From an uncultured Gammaproteobacteria bacterium (GTDB taxonomy: Bacteria > Patescibacteriota > Patescibacteriia > UBA11705 > DATKZF01): DNA of 27,556 nucleotides. Shown one piece after another: positions 1 to 20,851 of this stretch (position 1 is its first letter; the number at the start of each line of letters is the position of its first letter). The notes under the pieces were generated by a model. The model saw only the letters and a list, made by a program, of their open reading frames with translations. It was not told the origin of the DNA and did not search any database. The stretch spans positions 178,147-205,702 of the forward strand of contig CAYPKD010000004.1 in assembly GCA_964411255.1 (NCBI GenBank), in the 5' to 3' direction. Both the position numbers and the translations under genes were made by a program.

Positions 1-921
1 AGCATAGCCATTTTTAACCATATATTCATTTACAAAATTCCCATTCACATAGATATATGCCAAATATCTACCTTCTTTATCCCTAACAGAAACATCCTGT
101 ACCAATTCAATCATCTTTCCTTCTACCAATTCTTTGTTCATCTTTGTCGCCTTTTGGCCAAAGCAATCATCATATGAAACTTCAGGCGCATCAATTCCAA
201 TATATCTGACAATTTTTCCGTTTTCCAATTCAATTGTATCACCGTCAATCACCCTTTTCACTCTTTGCTTTTTTATTAAACCTTCATCAATAGCTTCAAT
301 GACAGTACTTTCTGCCCCAATCCCCAAAGCCTTCATTATTTCATAAGCTACTTTTGGAGATGATAAATAGTATCGCTTTCCATTTTGCGGATTCACATAC
401 CAAGCCTCTCCTCTTTTTTCAACCTGAATAAGAATTTTACCTTTCGTATACCTGACTAACTCTTTATCAATAATTTTTTCATCAAATTTTTCTTTATGAA
501 AAAACGGACTGTGTTCGGTTGAAATCTCAGTGATATCATTATACCCGTCATCATCAGTATCTGCCTTATTTAAACTTGTACCAATAGCTGATTCAAGCAA
601 ATCTGGCAAACCATCTTTATCAACGTCAGATGCAGCATAATAATTTACAAATTCAAGACCAATGGGAATTTTATTAATATCATTATTGGTTATTCCAACG
701 CCAAGATCATTTACAATATTAAAAAATTGTATTCCATCCTTTAAGTAATATCTACGGCTATCTTTTGGGTTTATATACCAGGCTTCCCCGTTTTGCTCTA
801 CCTGAAGTAAAATCTTGCCTTTCAGGCTCTCAGGCGAAGGCACAGCCTTTGCTGGTTTTATTACATATAAACCAAGGCAAAATATAAGCAATATTGTTAT
901 TAAAAATATCTTTTTTTTCAT
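1..921 (-). CDS. Secreted thermonuclease (staphylococcal-nuclease/SNase fold). The N-terminus is complete (ATG at 919-921) and the C-terminus runs off the left edge of the window. It has a signal peptide, two roughly 60-aa repeats of the form KGKILxQVExxGEAWYxNP...RYYL, and two Asp-rich Ca-binding-like loops (DVDKDGLPD, DTDDDGYND).
   Basis: Own translation of the minus strand. MKKKIFLITILLIFCLGLYVIKPAKA is a signal-peptide-like start. The C-terminal part RVIDGDTIELENGKIVRYIGIDAPE...GRYLAYIYVNGNFVNEYMVKNGYA matches the SNase hallmark (VIDGDT...GIDAPE...GR.LAYV). The frame is continuous from position 921 to position 1 (307 codons). It is absent from the ORF track because it has no stop in the window. 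Confidence 0.8.
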   Translation of the reverse strand, partial: MKKKIFLITILLIFCLGLYVIKPAKAVPSPESLKGKILLQVEQNGEAWYINPKDSRRYYLKDGIQFFNIVNDLGVGITNNDINKIPIGLEFVNYYAASDVDKDGLPDLLESAIGTSLNKADTDDDGYNDITEISTEHSPFFHKEKFDEKIIDKELVRYTKGKILIQVEKRGEAWYVNPQNGKRYYLSSPKVAYEIMKALGIGAESTVIEAIDEGLIKKQRVKRVIDGDTIELENGKIVRYIGIDAPEVSYDDCFGQKATKMNKELVEGKMIELVQDVSVRDKEGRYLAYIYVNGNFVNEYMVKNGYA

Positions 922-1019
922 GCAGTTATTTCTTTTTTTTACTTTTATAATTCAATTGTGGATAACTATCTCTATTATATCAAAAAACCACTCTTTAGGG
1001 CAGTTTTTATTTATTTTAA

Positions 1020-1559
1020 TCACTTTTTCTTAATTTTTTTATAAATTAAATATCCAAGAGCAAACAATCCACCTGTTGCTAAACTGGCAAAGAAAAATGC
1101 GACTTTAAACGCTAATTCATCCATTTGCTTATCAACTTCTTGCCTTTGTTCTTTTTTCCTTAATTTATTAATGAAATAAATATTTAGAATTAATCCGTAT
1201 AATACATTTACTGATAATAAAACAATTCCAATTGCTGGCATAGCAATGAATAAAATAGCTCCGGCTATTGCCAACACGACCGTGCCAAACAAAATTAAAA
1301 AAAATGGTAAAACATATCTTTTGCCAACTTGTGCTTCATATGTAATTTTTCCAAATTCTTTTTGAGGCTCAACTATTGGAGCCTTCCCATATCTTGCCTC
1401 ATCAATACCTGAATATAAAATTATAATGCCAGTGAATAAAAAAGGACAAGCTACAGGACTAATTGCAGCTACTCCTGTAAAAATTGAAACTAAAACCACA
1501 GCTATACTAACAATTATAAATAAAATTCCTCCAATTTTCATTAAAGTTGGCCGCTTCAT
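1020..1559 (-). CDS. Small polytopic membrane protein, function unknown
   Basis: ORF of 179 aa with about four hydrophobic helices and a lysine-rich C-terminus. It lies 4 nt downstream of the preceding minus-strand gene. Confidence 0.5.
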   Translation of the reverse strand: MKRPTLMKIGGILFIIVSIAVVLVSIFTGVAAISPVACPFLFTGIIILYSGIDEARYGKAPIVEPQKEFGKITYEAQVGKRYVLPFFLILFGTVVLAIAGAILFIAMPAIGIVLLSVNVLYGLILNIYFINKLRKKEQRQEVDKQMDELAFKVAFFFASLATGGLFALGYLIYKKIKKK

Positions 1560-1563
1560 ATAT

Positions 1564-2790
1564 TTAAATGTCTCTTTTATAAATATTAAATTTTAATCCA
1601 TCTTCTGCTATAATCAAATCATAAAATTTAAATTTTAAATTTTTCAAAACCTGCATTGAAGCTTTATTTTCAACATTTCTGAGACAAACTGCACCCCATA
1701 TTTTAGTATATTTTGTATCAATTAAATCATTTATTAGCCTTTGGAAAAGAGTTTGTCCTATTCTTTGATTCTGATAATTTATATCAACTGCTATTTGCTC
1801 AGCATAAATCAAAGGCCTTTGCTGATCTAAAATATATTTAGTAATATCATCTGAAATATTTAGTTTTTCAATAAAATCATCTGTAAATGCGGATAAAAAT
1901 CCAATTACCTCACCTGCTTTTTCAGCAACATAAAAGTACGGATTATCTTTAATATATTCTTCGTATCTTCGCATTGGCGGTACTTCGAATTCAACAAATC
2001 CTTTTGCTTTTTGCGAAGAGCGTCTAATATTATAATCCATAGTCAATTGTCTAACAATTTCCGCATCTTTAATCTGTGCTTTTCTAATCAAAACATCAGG
2101 ATGGCTGTTCCATTTAAACTTATCCATTACTTTTATAACTCCATACATAAACGGTGTATCAATGGCTGCAATTATAACTTTTACCACCCATTGTCCTAAA
2201 ATCAAGGGCCAAATCGGAAAAATACCATAAAAAGCAATAACAACAAAAATTACTGAATCAAGCAACTGGCTGACAATAGTTGACGCATTATTTCTTAGCC
2301 AAAGATGTTTGCCCTTGGTTAATTTTTTCAAAAAATGAAATGCCCAGACATCATGATGCTGGCTGATTAAATAAGCTATAAATCCAGCAACTGCGATTCG
2401 AGGTGTTAAACTTAAAACTTCTTTAAATTTATCAGCCAATTCAATTGCATAAGGTGCAGGCTTCCAGTACATTGCAATATATAAGGATAAAATAAAAATT
2501 AAATTTGCATAAAATCCTGTCCAAACCGCACGCCGGGCTGCCCTTTTCCCCCATTTTTCAGATAAAATATCAGTGATTAAAAATGTCATGGAAAAGGCAA
2601 TCACGCCTGCAGGCACTGTAAATGGGCCAAAACTTACTATTTTAACGGCCAAAACATTAGCAATCACCACTAAAGCAGCCATAATAGCAATGGGATAAAA
2701 AACTCCGTATTTTTTTCCTAAAATACCTGCAAATGATGCAACCACTAAAGTTACAATAATCCAAATTAAAATCAATATTATTTCTGGCAT
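1564..2790 (-). CDS. Fusion protein: N-terminal YhhQ/DUF165 (VUT-family queuosine-precursor transporter-like) membrane domain plus C-terminal GNAT N-acetyltransferase domain
   Basis: The N-terminal 230 aa are polytopic, with the YhhQ-like signature FSMTFLITDILSEKWGK (compare the FPLTFLxTDxINE core of that family). The C-terminal 170 aa have the GNAT fold pattern (VIGFLSAFTDD...IAVDINYQNQRIGQTLFQRLI...), whose Q/RxxGxG/A acetyl-CoA motif is QRIGQTL. Confidence 0.7.
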   Translation of the reverse strand: MPEIILILIWIIVTLVVASFAGILGKKYGVFYPIAIMAALVVIANVLAVKIVSFGPFTVPAGVIAFSMTFLITDILSEKWGKRAARRAVWTGFYANLIFILSLYIAMYWKPAPYAIELADKFKEVLSLTPRIAVAGFIAYLISQHHDVWAFHFLKKLTKGKHLWLRNNASTIVSQLLDSVIFVVIAFYGIFPIWPLILGQWVVKVIIAAIDTPFMYGVIKVMDKFKWNSHPDVLIRKAQIKDAEIVRQLTMDYNIRRSSQKAKGFVEFEVPPMRRYEEYIKDNPYFYVAEKAGEVIGFLSAFTDDFIEKLNISDDITKYILDQQRPLIYAEQIAVDINYQNQRIGQTLFQRLINDLIDTKYTKIWGAVCLRNVENKASMQVLKNLKFKFYDLIIAEDGLKFNIYKRDI

Positions 2791-2995: not shown

Positions 2996-3424
2996 TTACT
3001 TTTTATTTTTTAAAATTTTAAAAGCTTTTTCAATTGCCTGAAATTCTGGCAATTTTTTATCATAATAATCAGCAAATTCATTTTTTGACAACCATTTATA
3101 CTGCTGAATTTCATCTTCTAATATTTTAATTTCCTGTTTTGGATCTTTCATCTTAGCAAAATATACTATTTCTACCCCTTCCCTTTCTTCGCTAAACATA
3201 AAAGATATAGTATAAAATGGATCTTCAACTATTATATCAATACCAAGTTCTTCCTTTACTTCTCTTTTTAATGCATCATAGCAATCTTCACCAAATTCTT
3301 TTCGGCCACCAACTAATTCCCATTTATTTGGCAGAAAATCTTTTTTATTTGATCTTTGGCAAGCTAAAAATTGATTCTTGTCATTGTAAATGAAAGCGAC
3401 TACGACTATTTCTCTTTTTTTCAT
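2996..3424 (-). CDS. NUDIX hydrolase
   Basis: The Nudix box GGRKEFGEDCYDALKREVKEELGI fits the pattern Gx5Ex7REUxEExGU. Confidence 0.8.
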   Translation of the reverse strand: MKKREIVVVAFIYNDKNQFLACQRSNKKDFLPNKWELVGGRKEFGEDCYDALKREVKEELGIDIIVEDPFYTISFMFSEEREGVEIVYFAKMKDPKQEIKILEDEIQQYKWLSKNEFADYYDKKLPEFQAIEKAFKILKNKK

Positions 3425-3843
3425 ACATTTTTTTCAATAAACGGTTTAATAATATTAATTATCTCATCAGCTCCATTACAAGGAAATGAAATTGGTTTGC
3501 CTTTTTTAAATTCTAATGTTACAAATTCAGAAGTCTGCCACATGCTCATTGGATATACTGCGCCTTTTCTTATACCTTTTAATTTTGAAATCGGAATTTT
3601 TCTAATAAAAGGGAAAAAACCAACCACTAATCTGTCTTGCCTTGAAAAATCCACCCAATATCCAAACAGCACGCCAAATAAAATCAAACCTATTGGTGCA
3701 AATATTACAATTATTATCCATTTCAATGGTCCCCAAACTAATTCTTCTGCTGGAATCCATATCCAAGTAATTATCCACCCAGTCCAAAGTAATAAATAAT
3801 AAATATAAGGTGATAGTTTTAAATTATAATGGTGTTTGAACAT
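3421..3843 (-). CDS. Membrane protein with a bacterial PH-like (bPH_2/YdbS-like) domain
   Basis: It has an N-terminal hydrophobic hairpin followed by a soluble segment of about 70 aa. The domain assignment is from memory of the YdbS-like architecture. Confidence 0.5.
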   Translation of the reverse strand: MFKHHYNLKLSPYIYYLLLWTGWIITWIWIPAEELVWGPLKWIIIVIFAPIGLILFGVLFGYWVDFSRQDRLVVGFFPFIRKIPISKLKGIRKGAVYPMSMWQTSEFVTLEFKKGKPISFPCNGADEIINIIKPFIEKNV

Positions 3844-3846
3844 ATC

Positions 3847-3875
3847 TTGACAAATAAAATATTTTTATATATAAT
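3847..3875 (+). promoter_or_regulatory. Perfect-consensus sigma70 promoter TTGACA-N17-TATAAT upstream of the 3925 CDS
   Basis: TTGACA is at 3847-3852, a 17-nt spacer follows, and TATAAT is at 3870-3875. The RBS AAAGGAGGAAAAAACAATG lies at 3909-3927. Confidence 0.6.
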
Positions 3876-3924
3876 ATAATGTCTCTAAAATTGGAAAAAT
3901 GAAGATATAAAGGAGGAAAAAACA

Positions 3925-4659
3925 ATGTATCGACTCATCCGCATAGCAGATAATTATGCAATGGTTATTGCTGTTACACCTGAAGACGCAAAACCAGAAG
4001 ATCAGGGTTCACGATTTTTCCTGTATAATGAATATATTGCTCAGCAAAAGAAAGTAGATCCAGATTTTGTTGAAGTAACAAAAAGTGTTGCTATACAATA
4101 CTTTGGTGGCATTGCTGATGGCCTTGGCTGGGGAAATCTACCCTCAAAAGCATTTAAAACTTTAGATGAAATTAAGGTTTGGAGACAAAAATCAGTAAAG
4201 GCTTGGACAGAAAAAAGACTAGCAGAGCAGGAAGCTCGGAAGAAAGAAAGACTAGTAGAACTGAAGGAGAAAAATGCCAGGTTTAAAATCATCCGCGTGG
4301 CAGAAGACTATTCAATGATTCTTGCAATTATACCTGAAGACGCAAAGCCAGATACTGAAGGCAGCCTTCTTTTTATGTATAATAAATGGAATGAATCGGC
4401 TGAGTCAAATGATTGCGATTTCGAAGACATAACAGAAAGTGGAGAAGGTTGGCTCCTCAGTAGATGGTTCCTTAGTAGTCATACTGATGATCTTGGCTGG
4501 GCAGATTTACCGTCTGAAACATTTGAAACTTTAAACGAGATCAAAGCTTGGAGAGAAAAAAGAATAGAAGAGGGTGAAATTAAGGATACAAAAGTTTGGC
4601 GAGACAAAGTGTTGACAGCAATGACGGATGACAAAATATTAACAACGGACGATATATAA
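3925..4659 (+). CDS. Internally duplicated protein of 244 aa (two repeats of about 121 aa), unknown function
   Basis: Repeat 1 (MYRLIRIADNYAMVIAVTPEDAKPEDQGS...LGWGNLPSKAFKTLDEIKVWRQK) and repeat 2 (RFKIIRVAEDYSMILAIIPEDAKPDTEGS...LGWADLPSETFETLNEIKAWREK) are clearly homologous. A strong SD and a consensus promoter precede it, and a terminator follows. Confidence 0.7.
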   Translation: MYRLIRIADNYAMVIAVTPEDAKPEDQGSRFFLYNEYIAQQKKVDPDFVEVTKSVAIQYFGGIADGLGWGNLPSKAFKTLDEIKVWRQKSVKAWTEKRLAEQEARKKERLVELKEKNARFKIIRVAEDYSMILAIIPEDAKPDTEGSLLFMYNKWNESAESNDCDFEDITESGEGWLLSRWFLSSHTDDLGWADLPSETFETLNEIKAWREKRIEEGEIKDTKVWRDKVLTAMTDDKILTTDDI

Positions 4660-4676
4660 TATCGTTCGTTTTTTAA
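4644..4676. terminator. Bidirectional intrinsic terminator shared by the convergent genes ending at 4659(+) and 4673(-)
   Basis: Hairpin AACGGACGATAT-ATA-ATATCGTTCGTT (12-bp stem with one G:U) followed by TTTTTT. The + gene stop codon lies in the loop. Confidence 0.6.
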
Positions 4677-4978
4677 ATTTGCCCAGTATGATTCCTATTT
4701 TTATTATTTTCAATAATTTTATTTAAAACTTCTTCACTTTCAACGCCAAACATTTCGCATAAACCCAAACAATATATTATTAAATCTCCAACTGCATCAA
4801 TCATTTCTTCTTTATTGCTAATTTCTTTTGCTATTTTTTTATCACTATTTTTAAATGCCTTTGCCAACTCGCCCAATTCTTCAGTCATTAAAATAATTTC
4901 TTTGCCAACATCAGTGATATTAAAACCTCGCTCAACTTTGTTTTGATATACTTGCTTTTGTAATTCATTTAAACTCAT
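4673..4978 (-). CDS. MazG-like all-alpha nucleoside triphosphate pyrophosphohydrolase (small, 101 aa)
   Basis: It shows the motifs TEELGELAKA and EEMIDAVGDLIIYCLGLC plus NNKNR, matching the EExGE ... D/ExxD pattern of MazG/HisE-type NTP-PPases. Confidence 0.65.
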   Translation of the reverse strand: MSLNELQKQVYQNKVERGFNITDVGKEIILMTEELGELAKAFKNSDKKIAKEISNKEEMIDAVGDLIIYCLGLCEMFGVESEEVLNKIIENNKNRNHTGQI

Positions 4979-4981
4979 ATT

Positions 4982-5236
4982 TTAATAAAAAATTATGTTA
5001 ATAAATATAAAAAATATACTTGAACCTAAAAAAACTCCAATCACATCCCAAAATAAATCTTTAAATGAAAATCCAAATCTATTTTTCCCAAAACCATCAT
5101 ACAATTCTCTAAAAATTCCAAATAAAATAAAAAATGGGCCAATAAAAACTGAACCCAAAATAGATATAATTAAATGTTCTAACTTATCTTTACCAAACCA
5201 TTCATCTTTTTTATTGTCAGCAAATTTAAATGCCAT
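4982..5236 (-). CDS. Small membrane protein of 84 aa, possibly a VanZ-like fragment
   Basis: It has a DKLEHLI motif and two hydrophobic helices. The assignment is weak. Confidence 0.4.
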   Translation of the reverse strand: MAFKFADNKKDEWFGKDKLEHLIISILGSVFIGPFFILFGIFRELYDGFGKNRFGFSFKDLFWDVIGVFLGSSIFFIFINIIFY

Positions 5237-5253
5237 TTTTTTATTTTTATTTG

Positions 5254-5288
5254 TTACAAGTTACAAGCTATAAGCTACAAGACTATAA
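5254..5288. repeat. Tandem heptamer repeat (T/C)TACAAG x4-5
   Basis: The sequence reads TTACAAG TTACAAG CTATAAG CTACAAG ACTATAA. It sits between the stop of the HD-GYP gene and the start of the 4982-5236 gene. Confidence 0.5.
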
Positions 5289-6368
5289 TTGATCAAAAAT
5301 TAGCCTGCTATTCCAATTCGAATCCTTTTTTTGAATAATTTCTAAACAAGCGTCAACCACATCCTCATCAAAAATCCAGCCTTTATTTCTTGAAATCTCT
5401 TCTATTGCTACTTCAATACCTTGGGCTGGCCGATAAGACCTTGGAAATGAAAATGCTTCCACCACATCAGCCACTGCTAATATTTTAGCTTCTAATAAAA
5501 TATCATCTTCTGTTAAACCTTGTGGGTATCCTGATCCATCCAGCCTTTCATGATGCTGATATACAATTTCAGCCACTGGCCATGGGAATTCAATCTTCTT
5601 TAATATATCATAACCTACTTTTGCATGAGTCCGGGCTAATTCTAATTCTAAATCTGTCAGCTCGTGCGGTTTGTTTAATATTGCTGAGGGTACAGCCATT
5701 TTTCCAATATCATGCAACAATGCTGCGATTCGCAAACCTGATATTTTGTCTTCATCCAATCCCATTTCAGCTGCAATTGCGCATGCTAATTTAGCCACAT
5801 TTTTTTGATGTCCGGCTGTAAACGGATCTCTCATTGCAATCGTTGATGCCAACACATCAACTGTCTGGTCGAACAATTCTTTCGTTTTCTTATTACTATC
5901 CTCTAATTTTTTTTCTGATTTTTTACTTGATGTTACATCCTGAATTAAAGTGACAAAATATCCTTTTTGAGGACTATAAACCGATATTTCCAGCCATTTA
6001 TCAACTCTTTCAAAATAATATTCAAATGAAACTTCCTGCTGAGTTGATGCTACTTGGCTATAAATATCAAAAATATCTTTTTGAAAAAAACGATAATCTG
6101 AAAATACTTCAGATACTTTTTTGCCCACTATTTCCTGATCGCTATAATTCGCTAGTTTTTTAAACGCATCATTTACTTCTAAATATGAAAAATCAACCGG
6201 TTCATCATTGTCATCATATATTATCTGACAATAAGCAAAAGCATTGGGTATGTTATGAAATAACATCCGATATCTATCATCTGAATTCTGGGATTGGCCT
6301 TCTTTTTTATCATTTTCTTCCATAATATATAAAAAAATATGAATCAATTTGGTATTATAATGTAGCAA
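5283..6368 (-). CDS. PAS-domain sensor fused to an HD-GYP phosphodiesterase domain (c-di-GMP PDE family)
   Basis: It has a PAS-like N-terminus and the HD-GYP motifs LLHDIGK and HHERLDGSGYP. Confidence 0.8.
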   Translation of the reverse strand: MLHYNTKLIHIFLYIMEENDKKEGQSQNSDDRYRMLFHNIPNAFAYCQIIYDDNDEPVDFSYLEVNDAFKKLANYSDQEIVGKKVSEVFSDYRFFQKDIFDIYSQVASTQQEVSFEYYFERVDKWLEISVYSPQKGYFVTLIQDVTSSKKSEKKLEDSNKKTKELFDQTVDVLASTIAMRDPFTAGHQKNVAKLACAIAAEMGLDEDKISGLRIAALLHDIGKMAVPSAILNKPHELTDLELELARTHAKVGYDILKKIEFPWPVAEIVYQHHERLDGSGYPQGLTEDDILLEAKILAVADVVEAFSFPRSYRPAQGIEVAIEEISRNKGWIFDEDVVDACLEIIQKKDSNWNSRLIFDQL

Positions 6369-6390
6369 AAATTATCAAATTTTACAAGCA

Positions 6391-7077
6391 CTAAAGCTTT
6401 TTCATTTCATAAATCTGATATTCATTATCAACAAAACTTTCTATTGCCAAAGGAGTTCTTATGCTCTTTATTAAAATTATTTCATATCCATATTGTCTTG
6501 CTATATCCTTAATAGCATCTAAATCAGCGAAATTCCCAGTACCTAAAAGCAATCGGCCATTTTTTTTCAAAAACTTTTCAGCGTCTTTGATATATTTTTC
6601 TAAACCCTGATAATTATAATCAAAACCTGCTTGCAGTAAAATCTCCTCATCAGGATTATCTCCTTTATTAAATGGGTGATTCCAGAAAATAAAATCAAAT
6701 TTCTCATCTCTGGGCAAAGGCTCATACATGTTGCCTTCATAAACTGGAATATCCAAATTCAATTTTTCAAAATTCAGTCTTGCATTTTGAACTGCAACCG
6801 GATTTATGTCTGTAGCTGAAACTTTTGCGCCTTTTAATGCAGCAAACACTGCAATAATTCCAATCCCAGTACCAATCTCTAACATTTTTTTATTGCCAAC
6901 AATTTTGGGCACTTCTTTTGCGAACCAAACGCTATCAGTAAAATATTTTGGTGAAAAAACATTTGGCAATATCGTAAACTCAATTCCTTCAACTTCAATA
7001 TTATAAGGTTTATCATGCTTTTTAATCTGCTCAAAAACCTCTCGCACCTCCTTTTCCCATTGCTGTTTTGTTACCAT
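6391..7077 (-). CDS. Class I SAM-dependent methyltransferase (MTS/HemK-PrmC-like small-domain MTase)
   Basis: The SAM-binding motif is LEIGTGIGIIAV, the acidic loop is SATDIN, and the catalytic motif FWNHPF resembles NPPY/DPPY. The start is placed at the Met at 7077, because the upstream Met at 7137 would overlap the preceding MazG gene by 59 nt. ATG 7077 is 1 nt from the MazG stop at 7079. Confidence 0.65.
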   Translation of the reverse strand: MVTKQQWEKEVREVFEQIKKHDKPYNIEVEGIEFTILPNVFSPKYFTDSVWFAKEVPKIVGNKKMLEIGTGIGIIAVFAALKGAKVSATDINPVAVQNARLNFEKLNLDIPVYEGNMYEPLPRDEKFDFIFWNHPFNKGDNPDEEILLQAGFDYNYQGLEKYIKDAEKFLKKNGRLLLGTGNFADLDAIKDIARQYGYEIILIKSIRTPLAIESFVDNEYQIYEMKKL

Positions 7078-7078
7078 A

Positions 7079-7396
7079 TTATAAATGCTTTTCATTAAGC
7101 TGTTCCCAATCCCAATTTCTGTCCTTATTAATCTCAATTTTATTCAAAATTTCCTTTTCCGCATCAACTTCAAAAACTCCGCATAAATGTAAAATACGAA
7201 TTAATGCATCAGCTAATTCTTCTTTAAATCCATGTGGGCCTTCAATTTGTTTTTTGCGATAAGCTTCATAAGCTTCAGCTATTTCAGTGTGAATCAAAGC
7301 AATCTTTTCCGGCACATTAACTTTATCTTTATCAGTTACCCAACCCTTTTCATCAGCCAGTTTTAAAATTTCTTCAGTTAATTTATTTATTTCCAT
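7079..7396 (-). CDS. MazG-like NTP pyrophosphohydrolase (105 aa)
   Basis: It has IALIHTEIAEAYEA and EELADALIRILHLC plus NKDR, the same architecture as the 4673 paralog. Confidence 0.65.
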   Translation of the reverse strand: MEINKLTEEILKLADEKGWVTDKDKVNVPEKIALIHTEIAEAYEAYRKKQIEGPHGFKEELADALIRILHLCGVFEVDAEKEILNKIEINKDRNWDWEQLNEKHL

Positions 7397-7397
7397 A

Positions 7398-7658
7398 TTA
7401 TTTAAAAGAAATTATTTGATAACCATATTTTTCAATATCTTCTTTAGACCAAAATTTCAAATCCTTTGTCTTCAAAACATAAGTAACTTGTTTTTCGATT
7501 TCTCTGCCTGTATATTCTTTTGTTTTTGGATCCCATTCTTTTAAAACCAAGTCATCGCCGGAATTGCATTCAAAGTCAGCTAATCGCAATTCAAATGTTT
7601 TATCACCATCAATAATTTTTTGAAAATATTTTGGCCAGACTTTTTTTTCAATATTCAT
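7398..7658 (-). CDS. ASCH/PUA-like small beta-barrel protein (DUF3850-like), 86 aa
   Basis: It contains the KTFELRLADFECNSGDDLVLKEW pattern typical of ASCH-like domains. This is weaker than the enzyme calls. Confidence 0.45.
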   Translation of the reverse strand: MNIEKKVWPKYFQKIIDGDKTFELRLADFECNSGDDLVLKEWDPKTKEYTGREIEKQVTYVLKTKDLKFWSKEDIEKYGYQIISFK

Positions 7659-7663
7659 ATAAA

Positions 7664-8074
7664 TTATTTAATTTTTTGGATATCCCCATTTAATATTATT
7701 GGCTTTGTATGTAAAATTTCCTGGGTATAACGTAACACCTGTTTTTCAGGTGGTGTATAAAGCAAAAATGTTTTTTTCTTCAAATAATATGCTAATCCAA
7801 TCTCAATTAAAGTTGCTCCACCAATATACCCTTTCATTCCATTCTTTGGATGATTCAATACTAAAAAAATATCGCTATCTTCCAGCTTCATCATTGAATC
7901 ACGCATAATATCCATAGATTCTGTATGATCAGGATCCATATTTAATTCTGGATTTTCCACGCATTGTTCTGTATCAGCAGGAACCAATACCTCAAATCCC
8001 ATTTCCTCTAATTTTTTCTGAGTCTCAAGCATCTCTTTTGCAAAATGCATTGAACCGCCAATATAAATTTTCAT
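7664..8074 (-). CDS. Protein of the nucleoside 2-deoxyribosyltransferase / DNPH1(Rcl)-like family (dNMP N-glycosidase-like)
   Basis: An N-terminal MKIYIGGSM resembles YxxGxxR/M. The core SDIFLVLNHPKNGMKGYIGGATLIEIGLAYYLKKKTFLL fits the (A/S)DxxVAxL...S.GTxxExGxA...GKPV pattern of that superfamily. Confidence 0.6.
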   Translation of the reverse strand: MKIYIGGSMHFAKEMLETQKKLEEMGFEVLVPADTEQCVENPELNMDPDHTESMDIMRDSMMKLEDSDIFLVLNHPKNGMKGYIGGATLIEIGLAYYLKKKTFLLYTPPEKQVLRYTQEILHTKPIILNGDIQKIK

Positions 8075-8075
8075 A

Positions 8076-8393: not shown

Positions 8394-8406
8394 ATTTTTT
8401 ATTTAT

Positions 8407-8445: not shown

Positions 8446-8449
8446 GAAT

Positions 8450-9142: not shown

Positions 9143-9144
9143 AA

Positions 9145-12636: not shown

Positions 12637-13530
12637 ATGCCTTTTGAAGCTGATATGCATAGCCATTCATACTATTCTGATGGTTATAATTCTCCAGCTG
12701 AATTAGTCAAAACAGCAAAATCCCAAGGGTTAAAGGCAATTTGTCTGACAGATCATGATAATTTTAACGGCATACATGAATTTATCAGAGCCTGCAAATT
12801 AGCACGACTTGATTTCATCCATGCAATTGAGCTGACAACTACCTATAAAGGTGTAATCGTTCATATATTAGGCTATGGATTAGATCTGAATAATCACACT
12901 CTTAATAAAGTGGTCTTTTCTCAATGGTATGTTCATAACCTCAGAATGACTCAAATATTGAGAAAATATAGAAAAAAAAAGGTTATGGATGTTTCATTGG
13001 ATAATTTAAAAAGGTCAGTCCAATGCAAAGGCCCTTGTATGTTTGACACTTGGCTAATAGATTTTCGCATGAGAATGGCTGAAATTTCTTTTGAACAAGC
13101 AAAAAATGAAATTAGCGGTAATGGATTTGTTAATACTGAATATGATAGTGAATTATTACTCACTGCCCCTCAGGCAGTAGATCTAATTGATAATGCTGGA
13201 GGATTAGCAGTGATTGCTCATCCTGGTGAAATAAGAAGAAGGCTTGAAAACAGAGGGATTCACGTAAATTGGAATAATTTCATTCAATTATGTATTTCCA
13301 TTCTTGAAAACCAGGGTTTAGCTGGAATAGAAGTGTCTCATCCCAGAAATGATGATGAACAAACTGAATTTTTAACCCATCTGGCAGATCAACGAGGATT
13401 AATAAAATTTGGCGGGTCTGATTATCATGGAAAATTTAAATCATATCTTCCTGGTCAATGCGGCATTAGTTATAAAGCTTTTCAGCAGATTAAAGCCAAA
13501 ATTATTAAAAAAAGACCGCGAAAATCGTGA
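12637..13530 (+). CDS. PHP-domain phosphoesterase (TrpH/YciV-like), paralog 2
   Basis: MHSHSYYSDGYNSPAELVKTAKSQGLKAICLTDHDN is collinear with paralog 1, as are IAHPGE and GGSDYHG. Paralog 2 has a basic C-terminal tail, KKRPRKS. Confidence 0.8.
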   Translation: MPFEADMHSHSYYSDGYNSPAELVKTAKSQGLKAICLTDHDNFNGIHEFIRACKLARLDFIHAIELTTTYKGVIVHILGYGLDLNNHTLNKVVFSQWYVHNLRMTQILRKYRKKKVMDVSLDNLKRSVQCKGPCMFDTWLIDFRMRMAEISFEQAKNEISGNGFVNTEYDSELLLTAPQAVDLIDNAGGLAVIAHPGEIRRRLENRGIHVNWNNFIQLCISILENQGLAGIEVSHPRNDDEQTEFLTHLADQRGLIKFGGSDYHGKFKSYLPGQCGISYKAFQQIKAKIIKKRPRKS

Positions 13531-15788: not shown

Positions 15789-16493
15789 TTATTTATCCAA
15801 TGCTGCATCAATTTCACTCTTAAATTGTTCATATGGCAATGCACCACTAAGTAACTTCCCGTTTATAAATGTTCCTGGCGTACCGCTGATCCCTGCTTTT
15901 TGAGCTCCAAGCATATCATTTGCAATTTTTTGAGCCATATCACCGTTATCTAAACAACTATTGAATTCACCTGTGTTTAAGCCCAAACCAGCTGCTGCTT
16001 TTTTAAATTCATCATTGCCTAAACCACCGCCTTCATTTAAGTCGAAAAGTTTATCATGCATTTCCCAGAACTTACCCTGCAAACCTGCACATTCAGCTGC
16101 TTCAGCAGCTTTTTGCGCATTTTCATGAAATGACAATGGGAAATTTCTGAAAACAATTGCCACCTTATCTCCGTACTCTTTAGCTATCTGCTGCATTGTG
16201 GCTGTATGTCTAAAACAATATGGGCATTCATAATCAGAATATTCAATAATTTGAACTTTTGCATTTTTACTTCCTTTCACATATTCACTATCACTAATTG
16301 ACTGAACTGGCTCTGCCTGAGGCTGTTCTGGCTGCTCAGCCTGTTGTTGTGGCTGCGCCTGGACTTTTTCAGCCAAATTAACTGATTCACTTTGGCCTAG
16401 AACAAATACTAATAGCCCAATAAAACATAAAACGCTGACTACAGCTAAGCCAACGAAAAAGCCGAGCCAAAAGTTTGATTTATTTTTTTCCAT
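15789..16493 (-). CDS. Membrane-anchored DsbA-family thiol:disulfide oxidoreductase (thioredoxin fold, CPYC active site)
   Basis: It has an N-terminal TM helix, a Gln/Pro/Glu-rich linker (QAQPQQQAEQPEQPQAEP), then YECPYCFRH and the usual DsbA helical insertion. Confidence 0.8.
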   Translation of the reverse strand: MEKNKSNFWLGFFVGLAVVSVLCFIGLLVFVLGQSESVNLAEKVQAQPQQQAEQPEQPQAEPVQSISDSEYVKGSKNAKVQIIEYSDYECPYCFRHTATMQQIAKEYGDKVAIVFRNFPLSFHENAQKAAEAAECAGLQGKFWEMHDKLFDLNEGGGLGNDEFKKAAAGLGLNTGEFNSCLDNGDMAQKIANDMLGAQKAGISGTPGTFINGKLLSGALPYEQFKSEIDAALDK

Positions 16494-16628
16494 AAATTAT
16501 TAAGTTAATTATCAATGAATATATGTTAGCAAAAAATACATTACTTGACAAGTTATTCATGATCATTGGTTTTTGGTTTTAGCTGCCAGTATAGTATGCC
16601 TGTCTAAACCGGCTGCCAGGCCCAATAC

Positions 16629-18128
16629 CTAATGACCAATTTTAAATATCTCAACTTTATTTGTTGCCATTACACCAAGCTTTATCCGATCATCAGATGA
16701 AGCATAAAGAGTAAATAATTTCTCACCTTTCTTTATCCTTTGACCAAAAAACGCATGCAAATGAACTCCCGCAAGCTTATCGCTTGGCGCACCAAGGTTC
16801 ATGCAAATTTCTTTAATTGCCTTGTTGTCAACAAAATTAATTTTACCCGTTTTTTTAGCATGAATTTCATATCTTTTAGCGCCAGAAGTGAAATCTTCTG
16901 AATGCTGGTCAGCTTTTCCGCCTTGCGCGATTACAATTTCATTCATTTTATCCCAGGCAGCGCCTGAAGTTAATTGCCGCATGGCAATTTTTCTGCCCTG
17001 ACCTTTTTTTGCAAACCCTTTTAATTCTAATAATTCACCTGCTAGTTTTACTGATTTTCTTTCTAAATCAAGCGGACGAAGCTCATGCCTTTGCAAAACT
17101 CTGAATACATCCCGAGCTTCCAGCGCTGGGCCAATTCCTCTGCCCAGCGGCTCTACGGCCTTTGTTTTCACTGCTTTTACCTTCATACCAAACCTTTTTC
17201 CCAAAGCAATGAATTTCTTCTCGATCATATTTGCTTTTGCCATATCAGGCACTTTGGTTGTCGGTCCGACCGGAATGTCAATAATTAAATAATCAACACC
17301 GGTCGCCACTTTTTTAGCTAAAATACTAACAATCATTTTATCATACGGCTCAAGAGCCAATGGTTTTGAAACTTTTATAATCTTATCATCAGCTGGAGCA
17401 AGGCTTAGTCCCCCGCCCCAAACCAGACAGCCATGTGTCTTTTTTACAATTTTTTTAATCTCATCCATTGAAAATGATACTGGGCAAATTACTTCCATTG
17501 TGTCTGCTGTACCTGCCGGAGATGTAATTGCTCTGGATGAAGTCTTTGGGATATATAGCCCGAGCGAAGCGATAATTGGAATAATTAACGGCGTAATTCT
17601 ATTACCTGACAGGCCGCCGACTGAATGCTTATCTACAGCTTTAACATTCAGGTTCATTTTCTCACCAGTTTCAGCCATTGCTTTTGCCACGTAATAGAGC
17701 TCGTCAAGCGAATAATCTTTTACAAAACTGGAGGCAGCATAATAAGTGGTTTCAACCGAACCTAGCACTCCGTCAACAATATCTTTAATAACCGCATAAA
17801 TTTCTTTGTATGTTACTGGTTTTCCCATTAACTTTTTATTTATTGTCTGAATAGAAAGTGGCCGGCTCATAATGCTGGCTTCAACAATATCGCCTGATTC
17901 TACTTGCACTTTTTTCCATACTTCCTTGAACAAGCCTAATTCTCCAGGTCGAACCTTTGTATTTGTCGTATCAGCGGTAACGATCGCTTTTTTATTTTTA
18001 CTCCAAATCAAATTCAACCTGTCTCCAGGATAAATTCCATAGCTTTCCGCTTCATCTTCATTTAAAACAGCGATCATTTTATCGCCTGTTGAAAAATCCA
18101 ATTTTTTGCATTTTAAATAAAACGCCAT
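16629..18128 (-). CDS. AMP phosphorylase (thymidine-phosphorylase family II enzyme with an N-terminal extension)
   Basis: At 499 aa it is longer than a classical TP. It has glycosyltransferase-family-3 core motifs (SVGGLSGNRITP, TSSRAITSPAGTADT) and a C-terminal alpha/beta domain, and it sits next to RuBisCO and the R15P isomerase. Confidence 0.8.
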   Translation of the reverse strand: MAFYLKCKKLDFSTGDKMIAVLNEDEAESYGIYPGDRLNLIWSKNKKAIVTADTTNTKVRPGELGLFKEVWKKVQVESGDIVEASIMSRPLSIQTINKKLMGKPVTYKEIYAVIKDIVDGVLGSVETTYYAASSFVKDYSLDELYYVAKAMAETGEKMNLNVKAVDKHSVGGLSGNRITPLIIPIIASLGLYIPKTSSRAITSPAGTADTMEVICPVSFSMDEIKKIVKKTHGCLVWGGGLSLAPADDKIIKVSKPLALEPYDKMIVSILAKKVATGVDYLIIDIPVGPTTKVPDMAKANMIEKKFIALGKRFGMKVKAVKTKAVEPLGRGIGPALEARDVFRVLQRHELRPLDLERKSVKLAGELLELKGFAKKGQGRKIAMRQLTSGAAWDKMNEIVIAQGGKADQHSEDFTSGAKRYEIHAKKTGKINFVDNKAIKEICMNLGAPSDKLAGVHLHAFFGQRIKKGEKLFTLYASSDDRIKLGVMATNKVEIFKIGH

Positions 18129-18140
18129 ATAGTATTTATA

Positions 18141-19406
18141 TTATTTTTTCCAAAACTGTAAAGCCCTTGCCAATTCTTCATGATCTTCTGAATATTCTTT
18201 TAATTTTACTCCACGCTCAATGGCTTGCACTGCCTGGCGGCAAGCCCTGGCGCCGGCAACTGAACCGTCTGGATGGCCGTGAATACCAGCGCCAAAATTG
18301 GCGATTAGATTTATTCCGAGTATTTCAACCAATTTAGGCAAAAGCCCTGGATGCAAACCACCAGAAGCAATTGGCAAAACCGGTTTAATTTTACTCCAAT
18401 CCTCTTTGACAATATTGTGGCTTTTCCAGTCTTCCTTCATCAATTGATTTACTGTTAAAACATCTTCCCGATCGCCCTCCATTTTACCAACTACTGTTCC
18501 AGTATGCAATTGGTCAACTCCGGCCAGTCTGGCTAATTTTGCAATAACCAGCATACTCATCCCATGTTTTTTATTTCTGGTAAATAATGCGTGTCCTGCC
18601 CGGTGGCCATGAATTATTAATCCTAAATTTTTCTTTCGTAAATATTGTACATTATCTAAACCAGTTGAAACGATATCAACCATCACGCATTTTCCACCCA
18701 ATTTTTTCACTAATTTTGCCCGTTCAAGCATTTGTTCAGGCGGTGCAGTAATATTACAGGCATATACTTTTTTCTGTTTTGTTTCTTTTTCAACTTTTTT
18801 CTTCCAATACAAAACCTTTTTCACTCTGTCTGCAAAACGGTTAAAGCTCATGTTAGTTAAATTCTCATCGTCTTTAACCAAATCAATGCCATTCAGCCAT
18901 ACAGCAGCTGACAATTTTGCCTGCTGGGCCGCAGTTAAACCTACTTTTGGTTTTATAATACTTCCTAAAATCACTCTGCCTTTTATTTTTAAAATCTTTC
19001 GGATGCCGTCAATGCCAAATGCCGGCCCCTTAAAACTGGCGCTGTATTTCACTGGAAATTCAATATCTTCCCATCTTAAATTTTTTATTAACTTCATACC
19101 GTAAATATTGCCTCCAATGCTTGATAAAAGTTGAGGAATACTGCCCCTTTCAAATAAATCTAAAGGATAAGCAACTTTTATTATCTTTTTCTTTTCATTT
19201 GCAAAAAAGACTCTGGCCTTTAATTTTTCTGCTAATTTGGGGTTCAGTGTCTGTAATTCTGTCCATGATCCAATAGAACTCTCCCCAGCAACTGCATCAG
19301 CTGCTTCCTGAAAGCTGACTCCTCTTGGCTCAACATAAAAAGTAGCGATAATTTCCTTATCCTTTTTTGGCTTGTATCCAATTTCAACAAATTTTACTAC
19401 TGACAT
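18141..19406 (-). CDS. rbcL: RuBisCO large subunit, short form II/III-like (421 aa)
   Basis: The motifs GIDLVKDDENL (GxDFxKDDE), IIKPKVGL (KPKLGL), IHGHRAGHA (HxHRAxH) and ASGGLHPG are present. No small subunit is present. Confidence 0.85.
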   Translation of the reverse strand: MSVVKFVEIGYKPKKDKEIIATFYVEPRGVSFQEAADAVAGESSIGSWTELQTLNPKLAEKLKARVFFANEKKKIIKVAYPLDLFERGSIPQLLSSIGGNIYGMKLIKNLRWEDIEFPVKYSASFKGPAFGIDGIRKILKIKGRVILGSIIKPKVGLTAAQQAKLSAAVWLNGIDLVKDDENLTNMSFNRFADRVKKVLYWKKKVEKETKQKKVYACNITAPPEQMLERAKLVKKLGGKCVMVDIVSTGLDNVQYLRKKNLGLIIHGHRAGHALFTRNKKHGMSMLVIAKLARLAGVDQLHTGTVVGKMEGDREDVLTVNQLMKEDWKSHNIVKEDWSKIKPVLPIASGGLHPGLLPKLVEILGINLIANFGAGIHGHPDGSVAGARACRQAVQAIERGVKLKEYSEDHEELARALQFWKK

Positions 19407-19410
19407 AACA

Positions 19411-19502
19411 TTGATAGTTACGAAGTTATGATGTTATGAAGTTACGTTGTTATTTAAAATATATATAACGTCGTAACTTAGTAACCTCGTAACATCATAA
19501 CG
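19411..19502. repeat. Imperfect palindrome of about 90 bp built from heptamer units (AGTTAYG on the left, CGTAACT-type on the right) around an AT-rich centre, lying between the HAD-like gene stop and the RuBisCO start
   Basis: The sequence is TTGATAGTTACGAAGTTATGATGTTATGAAGTTACGTTGTTAT-TTAAAATATATAT-AACGTCGTAACTTAGTAACCTCGTAACATCATAACG. Confidence 0.6.
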
Positions 19503-19914
19503 ATTTTATTAGTTTTACAATTTTTTCAATATCATCTAAGGCGAAGTCAACTTCATCTGTTTCATTATTTTTACTAAACAAAACTGTTTTAATTCCTACT
19601 TGTTTTGCTGGAAGCAAATTGCTAATAAGATCATCAATCATTAAACATTCTTCTGGTTTTATATTCAAATCATTTATAAATTTTTGATATGTATTTGCAT
19701 CTGTTTTACTTTGGCCTGATTCAGCGCAGGCAATGATAGGATCAAGCCCTAACTGATTTCCAATCTCTTTCACTGTGTTTGGAGATAAATTACTAATGGT
19801 TGCATTAATAATCCCTTTTGCTTTTAACTGTTCAACAATATCCTTGGCTTTAGGGTCAATCTGGCCATTTTTATAAACCACGCCATATAAATCCCAAATA
19901 ATTGCTTTAATCAT
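19495..19914 (-). CDS. Small HAD-like hydrolase domain protein (139 aa; a possible phosphatase)
   Basis: IIWDLYGVV sits at the motif-I position (DxDGx-like, with the second Asp replaced), and MIDDLISNL sits at the motif-IV position. It is short for a HAD enzyme, so the assignment is tentative. Confidence 0.45.
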   Translation of the reverse strand: MIKAIIWDLYGVVYKNGQIDPKAKDIVEQLKAKGIINATISNLSPNTVKEIGNQLGLDPIIACAESGQSKTDANTYQKFINDLNIKPEECLMIDDLISNLLPAKQVGIKTVLFSKNNETDEVDFALDDIEKIVKLIKSL

Positions 19915-20851
19915 ATTTTTTTTTCAAAAACTTATACTTCTTTGTCGTTTTCTTTGAAATATATTTTGGTTTTAATATTCCCAATTCTGTAATAAAACCT
20001 GTGATAAACCTGGCAGGAATAATATCAAATGCATAATTTATAATTTCCAATCCCTTTGGCGCTCTGGACCAAATTTCATTTGCTTTTCTTTGTTCAATTT
20101 CTAAATTTTTCAAATGTTTAGTTTCAATATCAAGCTTTAATGCCTGAGTTGCTATATATACTGGAATTTTTGCTTCACGCGCTGCTAAGGCCAGGCCTAA
20201 AGATCCTATCTTATTAACTGCATCACCGTCCAAAGTAATTGCATCACAGCCTAAAATTAATAAATCCATATCATATCCTTTGCTATACTGGCTGACAAAA
20301 AACGGACCTGCGCTGTCAACCACTTGGGTATTTTTAATATTCATTTTTAATAATTCTTTTGAAGTCGTTCTGCCCTGAAATAATGGCCTGGTTTCATTAT
20401 TAAAAACATGGATTTTTTTTCTTTTCTTTTTGGCCGCTTCTAATATACTTATTGCGGTAGAGGAATGACAATGAGTAAAGATATTATCATTATTACTAAT
20501 CAATTTCTCACCATAATCTTTAATAATTCTTTTATTTGTCATTATTTCAAATAAAAAACTGTCAATTCCTCTTTTTATTAAAACTCTTAACTTTTTTATA
20601 TCTAAATCCTGATTTTTATCTAAATGATATGAAACAAATCGTACAGCATTTTCTGCCATTGGCTCTGTTTCTCTGGCCCTGCTCAAGTAATATCCAATTT
20701 TTTTCACTCTGCTGATTAATTGACGGGGAGTTTTCAGCCTTTTCTCCTGAGAAACTTTTTTTAAGGTATTTAAAACAGCTTCAGCTATATTGGTTGCCCC
20801 CTGAATTTCAATGTTAACGATTTTTTTATAAATTTGGTCGATGTAATTCAT
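19907..20851 (-). CDS. Ribose-1,5-bisphosphate isomerase (eIF-2B alpha/beta/delta-like e2b2 family)
   Basis: An e2b2/MtnA-fold signature (GATNIAEAVL ... ILGCDAITLDGDAVNKIGS) is present. Its stop overlaps the HAD-like start by 8 nt. Confidence 0.75.
   Translation of the reverse strand: MNYIDQIYKKIVNIEIQGATNIAEAVLNTLKKVSQEKRLKTPRQLISRVKKIGYYLSRARETEPMAENAVRFVSYHLDKNQDLDIKKLRVLIKRGIDSFLFEIMTNKRIIKDYGEKLISNNDNIFTHCHSSTAISILEAAKKKRKKIHVFNNETRPLFQGRTTSKELLKMNIKNTQVVDSAGPFFVSQYSKGYDMDLLILGCDAITLDGDAVNKIGSLGLALAAREAKIPVYIATQALKLDIETKHLKNLEIEQRKANEIWSRAPKGLEIINYAFDIIPARFITGFITELGILKPKYISKKTTKKYKFLKKKYD

Follow-up and report, generated by a model that had tools for sequence, protein, structure and literature searches.

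The Candidate Phyla Radiation (CPR) of bacteria includes lineages with a Form III-c RuBisCO, for which a consecutive e2b2-rbcL-deoA gene order and a role in a CO2-incorporating AMP pathway have been described (Jaffe et al. 2019, PMC6389311). That RuBisCO-bearing CPR bacteria depend on external ribose is an idea of Wrighton et al. 2016 (PMC5113843), and CPR bacteria have been reported often to lack nucleotide synthesis (PMC7304191). Here we analyze a stretch of 27,556 nucleotides (27.6 kb, hereafter the window) of a contig from an uncultured bacterium that carries such a gene cluster. The window has about 33% G+C and contains about 36 genes and one tRNA-Ser, lying on the minus strand nearly throughout. 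A first-pass annotation had seen in its first 21 kb a region that concentrates nucleic-acid scavenging and nucleotide breakdown. Our preferred reading, to which we give a probability of about 0.72, is that the window represents ordinary chromosome from a Patescibacteria (CPR) bacterium, in which two unrelated nucleotide-metabolism modules stand among scattered single genes. The taxonomic placement is based on the names attached to relatives of the RuBisCO and of an RNase; the RuBisCO relatives are annotated as Patescibacteria, Falkowbacteria, Kuenenbacteria or 'Form III-c'.

For comparison, we searched 80 loci of RuBisCO relatives, extending 10 kb to each side, with all window proteins and read about 46 kb of the source contig, comprising the window and its flanks; an identical RuBisCO protein is encoded on this contig, a JGI metagenome contig of 364,661 bp (Ga0309772_1000015). 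Two near relatives (L169 and L170) have a RuBisCO 78-80% identical to that of the window; among the species representatives of the genome collection, identity to the window RuBisCO was at most 71%. All components listed in the first-pass annotation are present: an SNase-type nuclease, three MazG-like proteins, a NUDIX hydrolase, a HIT protein, an NDT/DNPH1-fold protein, a RibD_C reductase and the AMP shunt. That the region concentrates their function as a unit was not borne out, as none of the 80 RuBisCO loci and neither of the two close relatives carries the non-shunt genes of the theme nearby. The wider theme is a lineage-specific juxtaposition; over about 90 related loci compared, e2b2, rbcL and deoA alone remain linked, so that what is real and conserved is the AMP-shunt cassette already known for Form III-c.

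The AMP-shunt cassette and its chromosomal site

The shunt from AMP to 3-phosphoglycerate had been described as complete, and it is: all three of its genes are complete and intact. The first, on the minus strand at 18141-19406, encodes a type III (Form III-c) RuBisCO large subunit of the NCBIfam rubisco_III family, with 518.1 bits against the type III equivalog TIGR03326 (cut-off 497.45) and scores far under the cut-offs of the MtnW models. When 23 relatives were aligned, K152, K154, K178, D180, E181, H268, R269, H272, H301, K308, S348, G350, G372 and G374 were invariant, and the carboxylase motifs KPK, KDDE with the carbamylated lysine, HRAxH, GK, SGG and GGG are kept. The source of its closest named relatives, at 61-70% identity, labels these 'RuBisCO long chain, Form III-c', an assignment by label rather than by tree.

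The deoA-type gene for an AMP, or nucleoside monophosphate (NMP), phosphorylase starts 12 bp after rbcL (16629-18128, minus strand). An N-terminal extension of about 90 residues precedes the thymidine-phosphorylase core, the core Pfam domains beginning at residue 94. By NCBIfam, the protein falls just below the AMP phosphorylase equivalog (TIGR03327, AMP_phos; 525.2 against a cut-off of 535) and passes both the PRK04350 subfamily (530 against 434) and the archaeal-type model (514 against 435). The third gene (19907-20851, minus strand) encodes a ribose-1,5-bisphosphate isomerase of the e2b2/IF-2B family (Pfam IF-2B, 2.3e-59). Its top NCBIfam family is TIGR00511 (ribulose_e2b2), where it scores 202 bits, well below the cut-off of 314, and only the eIF-2B_rel subfamily is passed. 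The protein carries the Cys and Asp motifs THCHS and GCDA; since these residues are common to MtnA too, it is the genomic context that carries the e2b2 assignment. Homologues of the isomerase stand beside RuBisCO in 46 of the 80 loci and homologues of the phosphorylase in 43.

In our reading, the first module (16629-20851) is the known CPR Form III-c cassette e2b2-(HAD)-rbcL-deoA, which would work as in Thermococcus. Whereas the genes, their catalytic residues and their neighborhood are observed, the enzyme activities and the flow of substrate are predicted. AMP phosphorylase would convert AMP or another NMP and phosphate to the free base and ribose-1,5-bisphosphate, the isomerase would convert this to ribulose-1,5-bisphosphate, and RuBisCO would combine the product with CO2 and water to yield two molecules of 3-phosphoglycerate for lower glycolysis. 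A RuBisCO could instead serve a Calvin-type CO2-fixing cycle, and some Form III-c-bearing CPR bacteria, namely Gottesmanbacteria and Peregrinibacteria, do encode phosphoribulokinase (PRK) (PMC6389311). We give this alternative almost no weight here: the isomerase and AMP phosphorylase genes flank rbcL directly, prk was not found in the roughly 46 kb of source contig that were read, and the nearest RuBisCO relatives are Falkowbacteria- or Kuenenbacteria-like and do not belong to the PRK-bearing groups.

The gene between e2b2 and rbcL (19495-19914, minus strand) overlaps e2b2 by 8 bp and, by Pfam, NCBIfam and alignment, encodes a small capless HAD hydrolase. Lys70, the DD motif and the Asp that serves as nucleophile are all retained, but there is no cap and no Asp two residues after the nucleophile. 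At that position, HAD homologues of 137-148 aa (those of the window, L172 6415-6828, L169 9511-9939 and L170 9273-9719) have Y, I, L or M. In haloarchaea, the pentose bisphosphate pathway includes a HAD phosphatase that acts on ribulose-1,5-bisphosphate (PMC9700705); nothing links the window HAD to that enzyme. Additional genes occur in the shunt operons of other CPR loci. In L174, a Cu-oxidase_4 (YfiH-type) protein (7456-8349, precomputed Pfam) lies between e2b2 and rbcL, and in the shunt operon of L010 an open reading frame (ORF) of 282 aa occupies the gap position (8391-9239). An ORF of about 305 aa upstream of deoA in L018 (6369-7286) and L029 (12997-13911) resembles ribose-phosphate pyrophosphokinase by eye and is a candidate for that enzyme.

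On either side of the cassette lie a beta-CASP RNase gene and a DsbA gene. The RNase gene (20902-22326, minus strand), which falls outside the part covered by the first-pass annotation, lies upstream of e2b2 in the same orientation, at a distance of 50 bp, and encodes a protein of TTHA0252 type (Pfam Beta-Casp and RMMBL; PDB TTHA0252, 1e-77). The DsbA-like thioredoxin gene (15789-16493, minus strand; Pfam) is a backbone gene after the cassette: DsbA follows deoA in the near relatives and is also present where the shunt is absent. The backbone common to L169 and L170 reads DUF8128-TrwB-DUF2207-RluB-bCASP-e2b2-HAD-rbcL-deoA-DsbA, followed by HD, Bact_hydrolase, RecQ and BipA. Among the 80 loci, homologues near RuBisCO were found in 12 for the beta-CASP RNase, 7 for DsbA and 2 for the HAD.

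We then approached the site from the RNase side, sampling the contexts of five beta-CASP RNase homologues with 50-60% identity. Two of the five (L171 and L174) have the order bCASP-e2b2-(HAD or Cu-oxidase_4 protein)-rbcL-deoA. L172 (5001-7646) has bCASP-HAD-DsbA, its HAD and DsbA being homologous to those of the window, and L173 (5001-8929) has bCASP-DsbA-DUF4153, both without e2b2, rbcL and deoA; the fifth context is bCASP-ThyX-DHFR. Given these shunt-free arrangements and the very large size of the RNase family, beta-CASP and DsbA are backbone genes, and the HAD gene probably is too. These results suggest that e2b2-rbcL-deoA is a cassette, present or absent at a fixed beta-CASP/DsbA site (window 15789-22326) in a conserved Patescibacteria backbone, and that it is gained or lost there as a whole. 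Such presence and absence agrees with the role that Jaffe et al. 2019 (PMC6389311) give to lateral transfer in shaping how RuBisCO is distributed.

The same contexts bear on whether the RNase functions as the first step of the shunt, in an RNA-catabolic operon bCASP-e2b2-HAD-rbcL-deoA that leads from RNA through 5'-NMPs to 3-phosphoglycerate. Besides the 50-bp spacing on one strand, this idea can draw on the closest solved relative of the protein, which is the RNase TTHA0252, and on the loci in which a co-oriented beta-CASP gene lies no more than 2 kb upstream of e2b2: 7 of the 31 RuBisCO loci with enough flank and, in addition, L007, L018, L022, L169, L170, L171 and L174. We judge it quite improbable. 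An orthologous beta-CASP gene occupies the identical backbone position in genomes without e2b2, rbcL and deoA (L172 and L173), about three-quarters of the RuBisCO loci with enough flank have no beta-CASP gene within 2 kb upstream, and the family, with at least 7987 matches at E<=1e-40, is very large and extends beyond CPR, as expected of a housekeeping RNase. The bCASP-HAD-DsbA and bCASP-DsbA arrangements weaken the case for both the RNase and the HAD as functional members of a shunt operon. Scanning 13.8-24.2 kb for promoter and terminator consensus sequences gave no useful information, the DNA being AT-rich.

The nucleic-acid theme of the region

From its left end, the window contains genes for SNase, a membrane protein, a Vut_1-GNAT fusion, NUDIX, two unknown proteins, MazG-like 1, PAS-HD-GYP, a HemK-type methyltransferase, MazG-like 2, DUF3850/ASCH, the NDT-like protein, MazG-like 3, RibD_C, flavodoxin, GIY-YIG, HIT and glyoxalase. 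These are followed by tRNA-Ser, two plus-strand PHP genes, a small zinc-finger protein, DUF4153, DsbA, AMP phosphorylase, RuBisCO, HAD and the isomerase, and then by the beta-CASP RNase, a Wzy-like ligase, two small paralogous membrane proteins, a ClpB-like ATPase, an RluB-type pseudouridine synthase and a 37-residue-repeat protein. Nucleic-acid-related genes beyond those first listed are the two PHP genes, the beta-CASP RNase, the GIY-YIG nuclease and a salvage transporter for queuosine precursors (preQ type).

The SNase-type nuclease gene (1-921, minus strand) is cut by the window edge at its C-terminus; the part within the window matches Pfam SNase at 1.8e-14, and the full-length protein on the source contig has 342 aa and matches at 7.5e-21 (75 bits). 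Its N-terminus (844-921) resembles a signal peptide as judged by eye, with MKKK, 17 hydrophobic residues and PAKA|V, so that secretion is a prediction. The part N-terminal to the SNase domain (1-210) has two GEAWY-containing repeats and two acidic DxDxDGxxDxxE motifs (residues 99-110 and 121-132; 526-561 and 592-627 in the window), the latter recognized by pattern only, with no Pfam match. By alignment, the protein keeps D21, R35, D40, E43 and R87 of staphylococcal nuclease. Staphylococcal-type nucleases leave 3'-phosphates, and the substrates of AMP phosphorylase are 5'-NMPs. For an external SNase to supply the shunt, a 3'-nucleotidase, kinases and a nucleoside transporter would thus be required, none of which is encoded in the window.

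The two tandem PHP genes (11676-12548 and 12637-13530, plus strand) encode paralogous phosphoesterases of TrpH/YciV type (Pfam PHP; PDB 3e0f at 7.5e-21, 2yb1 and 7ug9), whose genes retain 74% DNA identity over their first 136 nt. Among solved structures, the best relatives are a pAp (adenosine 3',5'-bisphosphate) phosphatase and the 5'-3' exoribonuclease RNase AM (7ug9). Intracellular 5'-NMPs could come from the beta-CASP RNase together with the PHP enzymes, which would be RNA turnover and not feeding.

An integrated reading would make the 21-kb region a dedicated scavenging locus, in which the secreted nuclease produces nucleotides outside the cell, which are then trimmed by the hydrolases and give up their ribose as fuel to the AMP shunt. 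In its favor, no component is missing, the PHP and beta-CASP genes add RNA- or oligonucleotide-degrading functions, hydrolases are locally enriched over the flanks and relatives, and CPR bacteria are often reported without nucleotide synthesis (PMC7304191). We nevertheless hold it to be rather unlikely. Linkage is conserved for e2b2-rbcL-deoA only, both in the 80 RuBisCO loci and in the relatives at 78-80% identity. SNase products with 3'-phosphates would not directly feed a 5'-NMP phosphorylase, and the window lacks a nucleoside or nucleotide transporter, kinase or 3'-nucleotidase. RibD_C is biosynthetic, and MazG, NUDIX and HIT proteins are classically sanitising rather than bulk catabolic. 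A gathering-threshold scan with Rfam found no riboswitch or shared RNA element.

Neighborhoods favor our reading of two separate modules in ordinary chromosome over this locus. The PHP, HIT, RibD_C, flavodoxin, GIY-YIG, glyoxalase and DUF4153 genes are all less than 10 kb from RuBisCO in the window, yet none of the 80 loci has a homologue of them, and a sensitive search within 10 kb in L169 and L170 found no SNase, MazG, NUDIX, NDT, HIT, PHP or RibD_C homologue. The theme ends at both window edges, with genes for a CDP-alcohol phosphatidyltransferase, a cupredoxin, DnaG and RpoD on one side and DUF2207, a TrwB-like ATPase and DUF8128 on the other. The first-pass interpretation thus stands in part: the shunt is intact in a CPR group for which a hypothesis of external ribose or nucleotide use has been published, but that the region is a dedicated unit is not supported. 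Its assignment of the RibD_C protein to nucleotide breakdown also falls, as this is a riboflavin-type pyrimidine reductase beside a flavodoxin and not a breakdown enzyme. The SNase, the two PHP proteins, HIT and GIY-YIG would then be products of single genes, compatible with nucleic-acid turnover and linked to neither module.

Several observations weigh on the other side. Of the 33 non-shunt genes of the window, 7 are of SNase, MazG, NUDIX, HIT or NDT type, against 0 of 48 in a comparison set formed by the source-contig flanks and the two close relatives (Fisher p = 0.0012, with gene categories chosen post hoc), and there may be a weak regional bias toward nucleotide hydrolases. Between 1020 and 11044, nearly all genes point in one direction and are separated by short gaps only, and parts of the array may be co-transcribed. 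The tblastn and phmmer surveys may overlook strongly divergent small MazG-like proteins, and within the cassette itself the isomerase and AMP phosphorylase both score under their NCBIfam equivalog cut-offs. The lesson we draw is that a functional theme read from a single genome dissolves on neighborhood comparison.

The pyrophosphatase and NDT-like gene run

Five of the seven nucleotide-hydrolase genes of the window belong to one co-directional run (4673-10667), within which MazG3-NDT-DUF3850-MazG2-methyltransferase are tightly packed with gaps of 1-5 bp. The NDT/DNPH1/BcmB-fold protein at its center (7664-8074, minus strand) passes Pfam Nuc_deoxyrib_tr with 33.9 bits against a cut-off of 28.8. 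An AlphaFold2 (AF2) model, with a predicted local distance difference test score (pLDDT) of 96, finds its best PDB folds by Foldseek in BcmB CMP N-glycosidase, NDTs and DNPH1, with TM-scores of 0.5-0.64. Glu91, in the motif G-x-T-x-x-E-x-G-x-A, is invariant in 23 homologues. The protein is probably a nucleotide or nucleoside N-glycosidase or transferase. It belongs to a family of proteins of 136-141 aa, with more than 190 members in our search, from Patescibacteria and Woesearchaeota (a DPANN lineage).

Three small proteins of the run resemble MazG. MazG-like 1 (4673-4978, minus strand) is an all-alpha nucleoside triphosphate (NTP) pyrophosphatase by Pfam PRA-PH (31.1 bits) and MazG-like (27.9 bits), both above their cut-offs, and by a MazG-like family in PHROGs. 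MazG-like 2 (7079-7396, minus strand) has no Pfam match and was assigned by PHROG 'pyrophosphatase' (2.8e-21) and by PDB pyrophosphatase 4qgp (3e-4), with DCTPP1 at 0.098. The assignment is weakest for MazG-like 3 (8076-8393, minus strand), which scores 20.0 bits against Pfam MazG, under the cut-off of 22, and matches the MazG-like PDB entries 2q73 (9e-4) and 2q5z (about 1e-3). The acidic metal motifs EExxE/D are present in the MazG-like genes. Apart from the run lies the gene for a MutT/NudI-like NUDIX hydrolase (2996-3424, minus strand; Pfam NUDIX, 3.2e-19) with an intact Nudix box (GX5EX7REUXEEXGU; GRKEFGEDCYDALKREVKEELG), a protein that reached no NCBIfam equivalog.

The neighborhoods of the NDT-like family were surveyed in 80 metagenomic loci, with neighbors grouped by BLAST clustering and Pfam run on the cluster representatives. 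Within 1 kb of NDT homologues, NUDIX genes occurred in 18 of the 80 loci, Maf in 14 and a second NDT-like paralogue in 11, and among the 36 loci flanked on both sides, 16 had a neighbor of NTP-pyrophosphatase or HD type. Single neighbors included dCTP and dCMP deaminases, a YfbR-like 5'-deoxynucleotidase, PNP and adenosine deaminase. Across the 80 loci, the exact neighbors found in the window were not kept, but their class was. These neighborhoods suggest nucleotides as the substrate class, and the recurrence of NTP-pyrophosphatase-class neighbors supports a role of the NDT-like protein in sanitation or interconversion of the nucleotide pool.

The second module, which spans about 4673-8393 and takes in the NUDIX gene that stands apart at 2996-3424, is in our reading a lineage-specific, co-directional house-cleaning run. 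The MazG-like and NUDIX pyrophosphatases would split non-canonical or surplus (d)NTPs into (d)NMP and pyrophosphate (PPi), and the NDT/DNPH1-fold enzyme would split a (d)NMP or nucleoside into base and sugar(-phosphate). The likely order is pyrophosphatase action followed by N-glycosidic cleavage, a process related to, but separate from, bulk nucleic-acid catabolism. An NDT-like gene adjoining genes for all-alpha NTP pyrophosphatases has a parallel in DNPH1 and DCTPP1 of animals. A more specific idea, which we put forward tentatively as one possibility, is that the NDT-fold family and adjacent NUDIX, Maf or MazG-like proteins form a dedicated two-step pathway from (d)NTP through (d)NMP to base and (deoxy)ribose-5-phosphate. 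If true, this route would give ultra-small nucleotide-salvaging symbionts a second entry from nucleotides to pentose, together with pool sanitation, alongside the RuBisCO shunt. The pairing of the NDT-fold family with NTP pyrophosphatases in CPR and DPANN, which bears on keeping a salvaged pool clean, is the only lead from the window that is even modestly new.

Other genes lie in and around the run. Abutting MazG-like 2 is the gene for an S-adenosylmethionine-dependent methyltransferase of HemK/MTS type (6391-7077, minus strand; Pfam MTS, 5.4e-16; NCBIfam PRK14968-like), and a small DUF3850/ASCH (PUA-like) protein is encoded at 7398-7658 (minus strand; Pfam DUF3850, 2.2e-19; PHROG 'RNA-binding protein', 7.7e-19). 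The gene at 5283-6368 (minus strand) encodes a PAS and HD-GYP (HD_5) protein (Pfam HD_5, 1.7e-37, and PAS; NCBIfam c-di-GMP phosphodiesterase-like, 136 bits), a predicted signaling phosphodiesterase and not a scavenging enzyme. PAS-HD-GYP signaling in the middle of a house-cleaning array seemed unexpected for so reduced a genome. A plus-strand gene for a 244-aa protein (3925-4659) interrupts the minus-strand array; it had no match in Pfam or PHROGs, the two libraries scanned, and is internally duplicated, with a 96-nt DNA repeat (3903-3998 and 4257-4352) that is 75% identical between its copies.

Single genes, the left part and known systems

Among the single hydrolases, the HIT-family nucleotide hydrolase or phosphoramidase (10236-10667, minus strand) matches Pfam HIT at 3.7e-23 (82 bits) and has its triad, HFHLHLI, at residue 94. 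A stand-alone GIY-YIG nuclease gene (9793-10080, minus strand; Pfam GIY-YIG, 2.2e-16) occupies, with its repeats, positions 9763-10134. The perfect 27-nt inverted repeats that bracket it (9763-9789 and 10108-10134; CGTCATTCCTGCGAAGGCAGGAATCCA) are each a hairpin in themselves, and its surroundings (9651-10252) include a degenerate second copy of the left repeat at 9681-9708 and, on the right, a tandem array of three 43-nt units at 10124-10252. The unit looks like a small mobile cassette or one resembling repetitive extragenic palindromic (REP) elements, and a homologous GIY-YIG gene lies elsewhere in the relative L170 (15486-15737).

These repeats are one reason to ask whether the left part of the window (about 1-13.8 kb), which lies beside a tRNA-Ser gene, is a variable or horizontally acquired island of phage-type auxiliary nucleotide-metabolism genes, unrelated to the shunt by design. 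The tRNA-Ser(GGA) gene at 11332-11418 (minus strand; ARAGORN and Rfam tRNA) would suit an island, and the left half is not syntenic with the near relatives, which have HD, Bact_hydrolase, RecQ and BipA instead. MazG-like 2, DUF3850, NUDIX and NDT match PHROG families, and the first two match many phage records at 35-50% identity. Yet the left part contains no integrase and no phage structural gene, a search found no att-like repeat of the tRNA-Ser gene, and base composition resembles that of the rest of the window. No member of the NDT family was found in the viral contigs searched, which leaves a phage origin of that gene unsupported, and the homologues that were found are cellular (Patescibacteria and Woesearchaeota). 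We regard the island as unlikely and keep to ordinary chromosome.

PADLOC was run on ten proteins, nine from the array at 2996-10080 and the beta-CASP RNase. It returned generic domain matches only (NUDIX to PDC-S07, the methyltransferase to mad2 and HD to Cas3-HD), which count against the island and led us to drop the idea of a defence island.

Two adjacent genes point to flavin metabolism. The RibD_C pyrimidine reductase of riboflavin type (8450-9142, minus strand) matches Pfam RibD_C at 4.3e-42 and passes the TIGR00227 domain model, with a score of 173.5 against the cut-off of 186.45 for the archaeal reductase equivalog; 3 bp away is a flavodoxin gene (9145-9633, minus strand; Pfam Flavodoxin_4). 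At 1564-2790 (minus strand) a Vut_1/YhhQ-type queuosine-precursor transporter is fused to a C-terminal GNAT acetyltransferase (Pfam Vut_1, 2.8e-56, and Acetyltransf_1), and it scores 182 bits against a cut-off of 51 for NCBIfam TIGR00697. The Rfam scan for riboswitches, such as preQ1 upstream of this gene, returned tRNA alone.

To the right of the cassette, a 390-aa protein (24783-25955) combines an N-terminal hydrophobic segment with only the first nucleotide-binding domain of ClpB/ClpA and the lid, and homologues lie within 10 kb of RuBisCO in six other CPR loci (L010, L015, L017, L020, L025 and L045). Adjacent paralogous genes for small proteins of 90 aa (23864-24136) and 80 aa (24172-24414) share the N-terminus MAxxKTQTTTKQKV.TA.AIVAVAAAAFGIL and are kept beside the Wzy-like gene in L010. 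The partial gene at the right end (26743-27556) contains 37-residue (111-nt) tandem repeats, WF.VNEKGEKVGQDYD...PQDIGGKI.F.A.KD.K, with no significant Pfam match; the source contig encodes two such large 37-residue-repeat proteins, of 532 and 503 aa.

Each of the main proteins has a known counterpart. The SNase has the domain, the Ca-site and catalytic residues and a predicted N-terminal signal peptide in common with staphylococcal (micrococcal) nuclease, but differs in an N-terminal extension of about 210 aa with GEAWY repeats and DxDxDG motifs and in Ala at the position of T41; its export and activity are predicted. The best full-length PDB and NCBIfam matches of the PHP proteins are TrpH/YciV (RNase AM, and the 3',5'-nucleoside bisphosphate phosphatase Cv1693), but their scores of 98-109 bits compare with an equivalog cut-off of 400, and they are encoded by two diverged tandem paralogues on the opposite strand. 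The beta-CASP RNase shares with Thermus thermophilus TTHA0252 (E = 1e-77) the MBL, beta-CASP and RMMBL architecture without KH domains; unlike it, the window protein belongs to a CPR clade, and its adjacency to the shunt cassette is positional and not universal. With DNPH1 (Rcl), the BcmB-MilB CMP N-glycosidases and NDTs, the NDT-like protein shares a fold by model, a Pfam family and an invariant Glu, whereas it has no sequence match to solved NDT or DNPH1 proteins and forms a distinct family of 136-141 aa.

The closest system is the Form III-c AMP (pentose bisphosphate) cluster of CPR and DPANN (PMC6389311, PMC5113843), with its prototype in Thermococcus kodakarensis. The window has the identical three enzymes in the identical order. 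It varies from the published cluster in minor ways only, with a small capless HAD between e2b2 and rbcL in its sub-lineage and with a cassette that stands at a fixed beta-CASP/DsbA site, empty in related genomes. The window reveals no new system, and the scavenging region is a local coincidence layered on a known idea. What the window offers is the nucleotide-salvage operon of CPR Form III-c RuBisCO in a clean and complete form, in which the cassette occupies a fixed site in the backbone.

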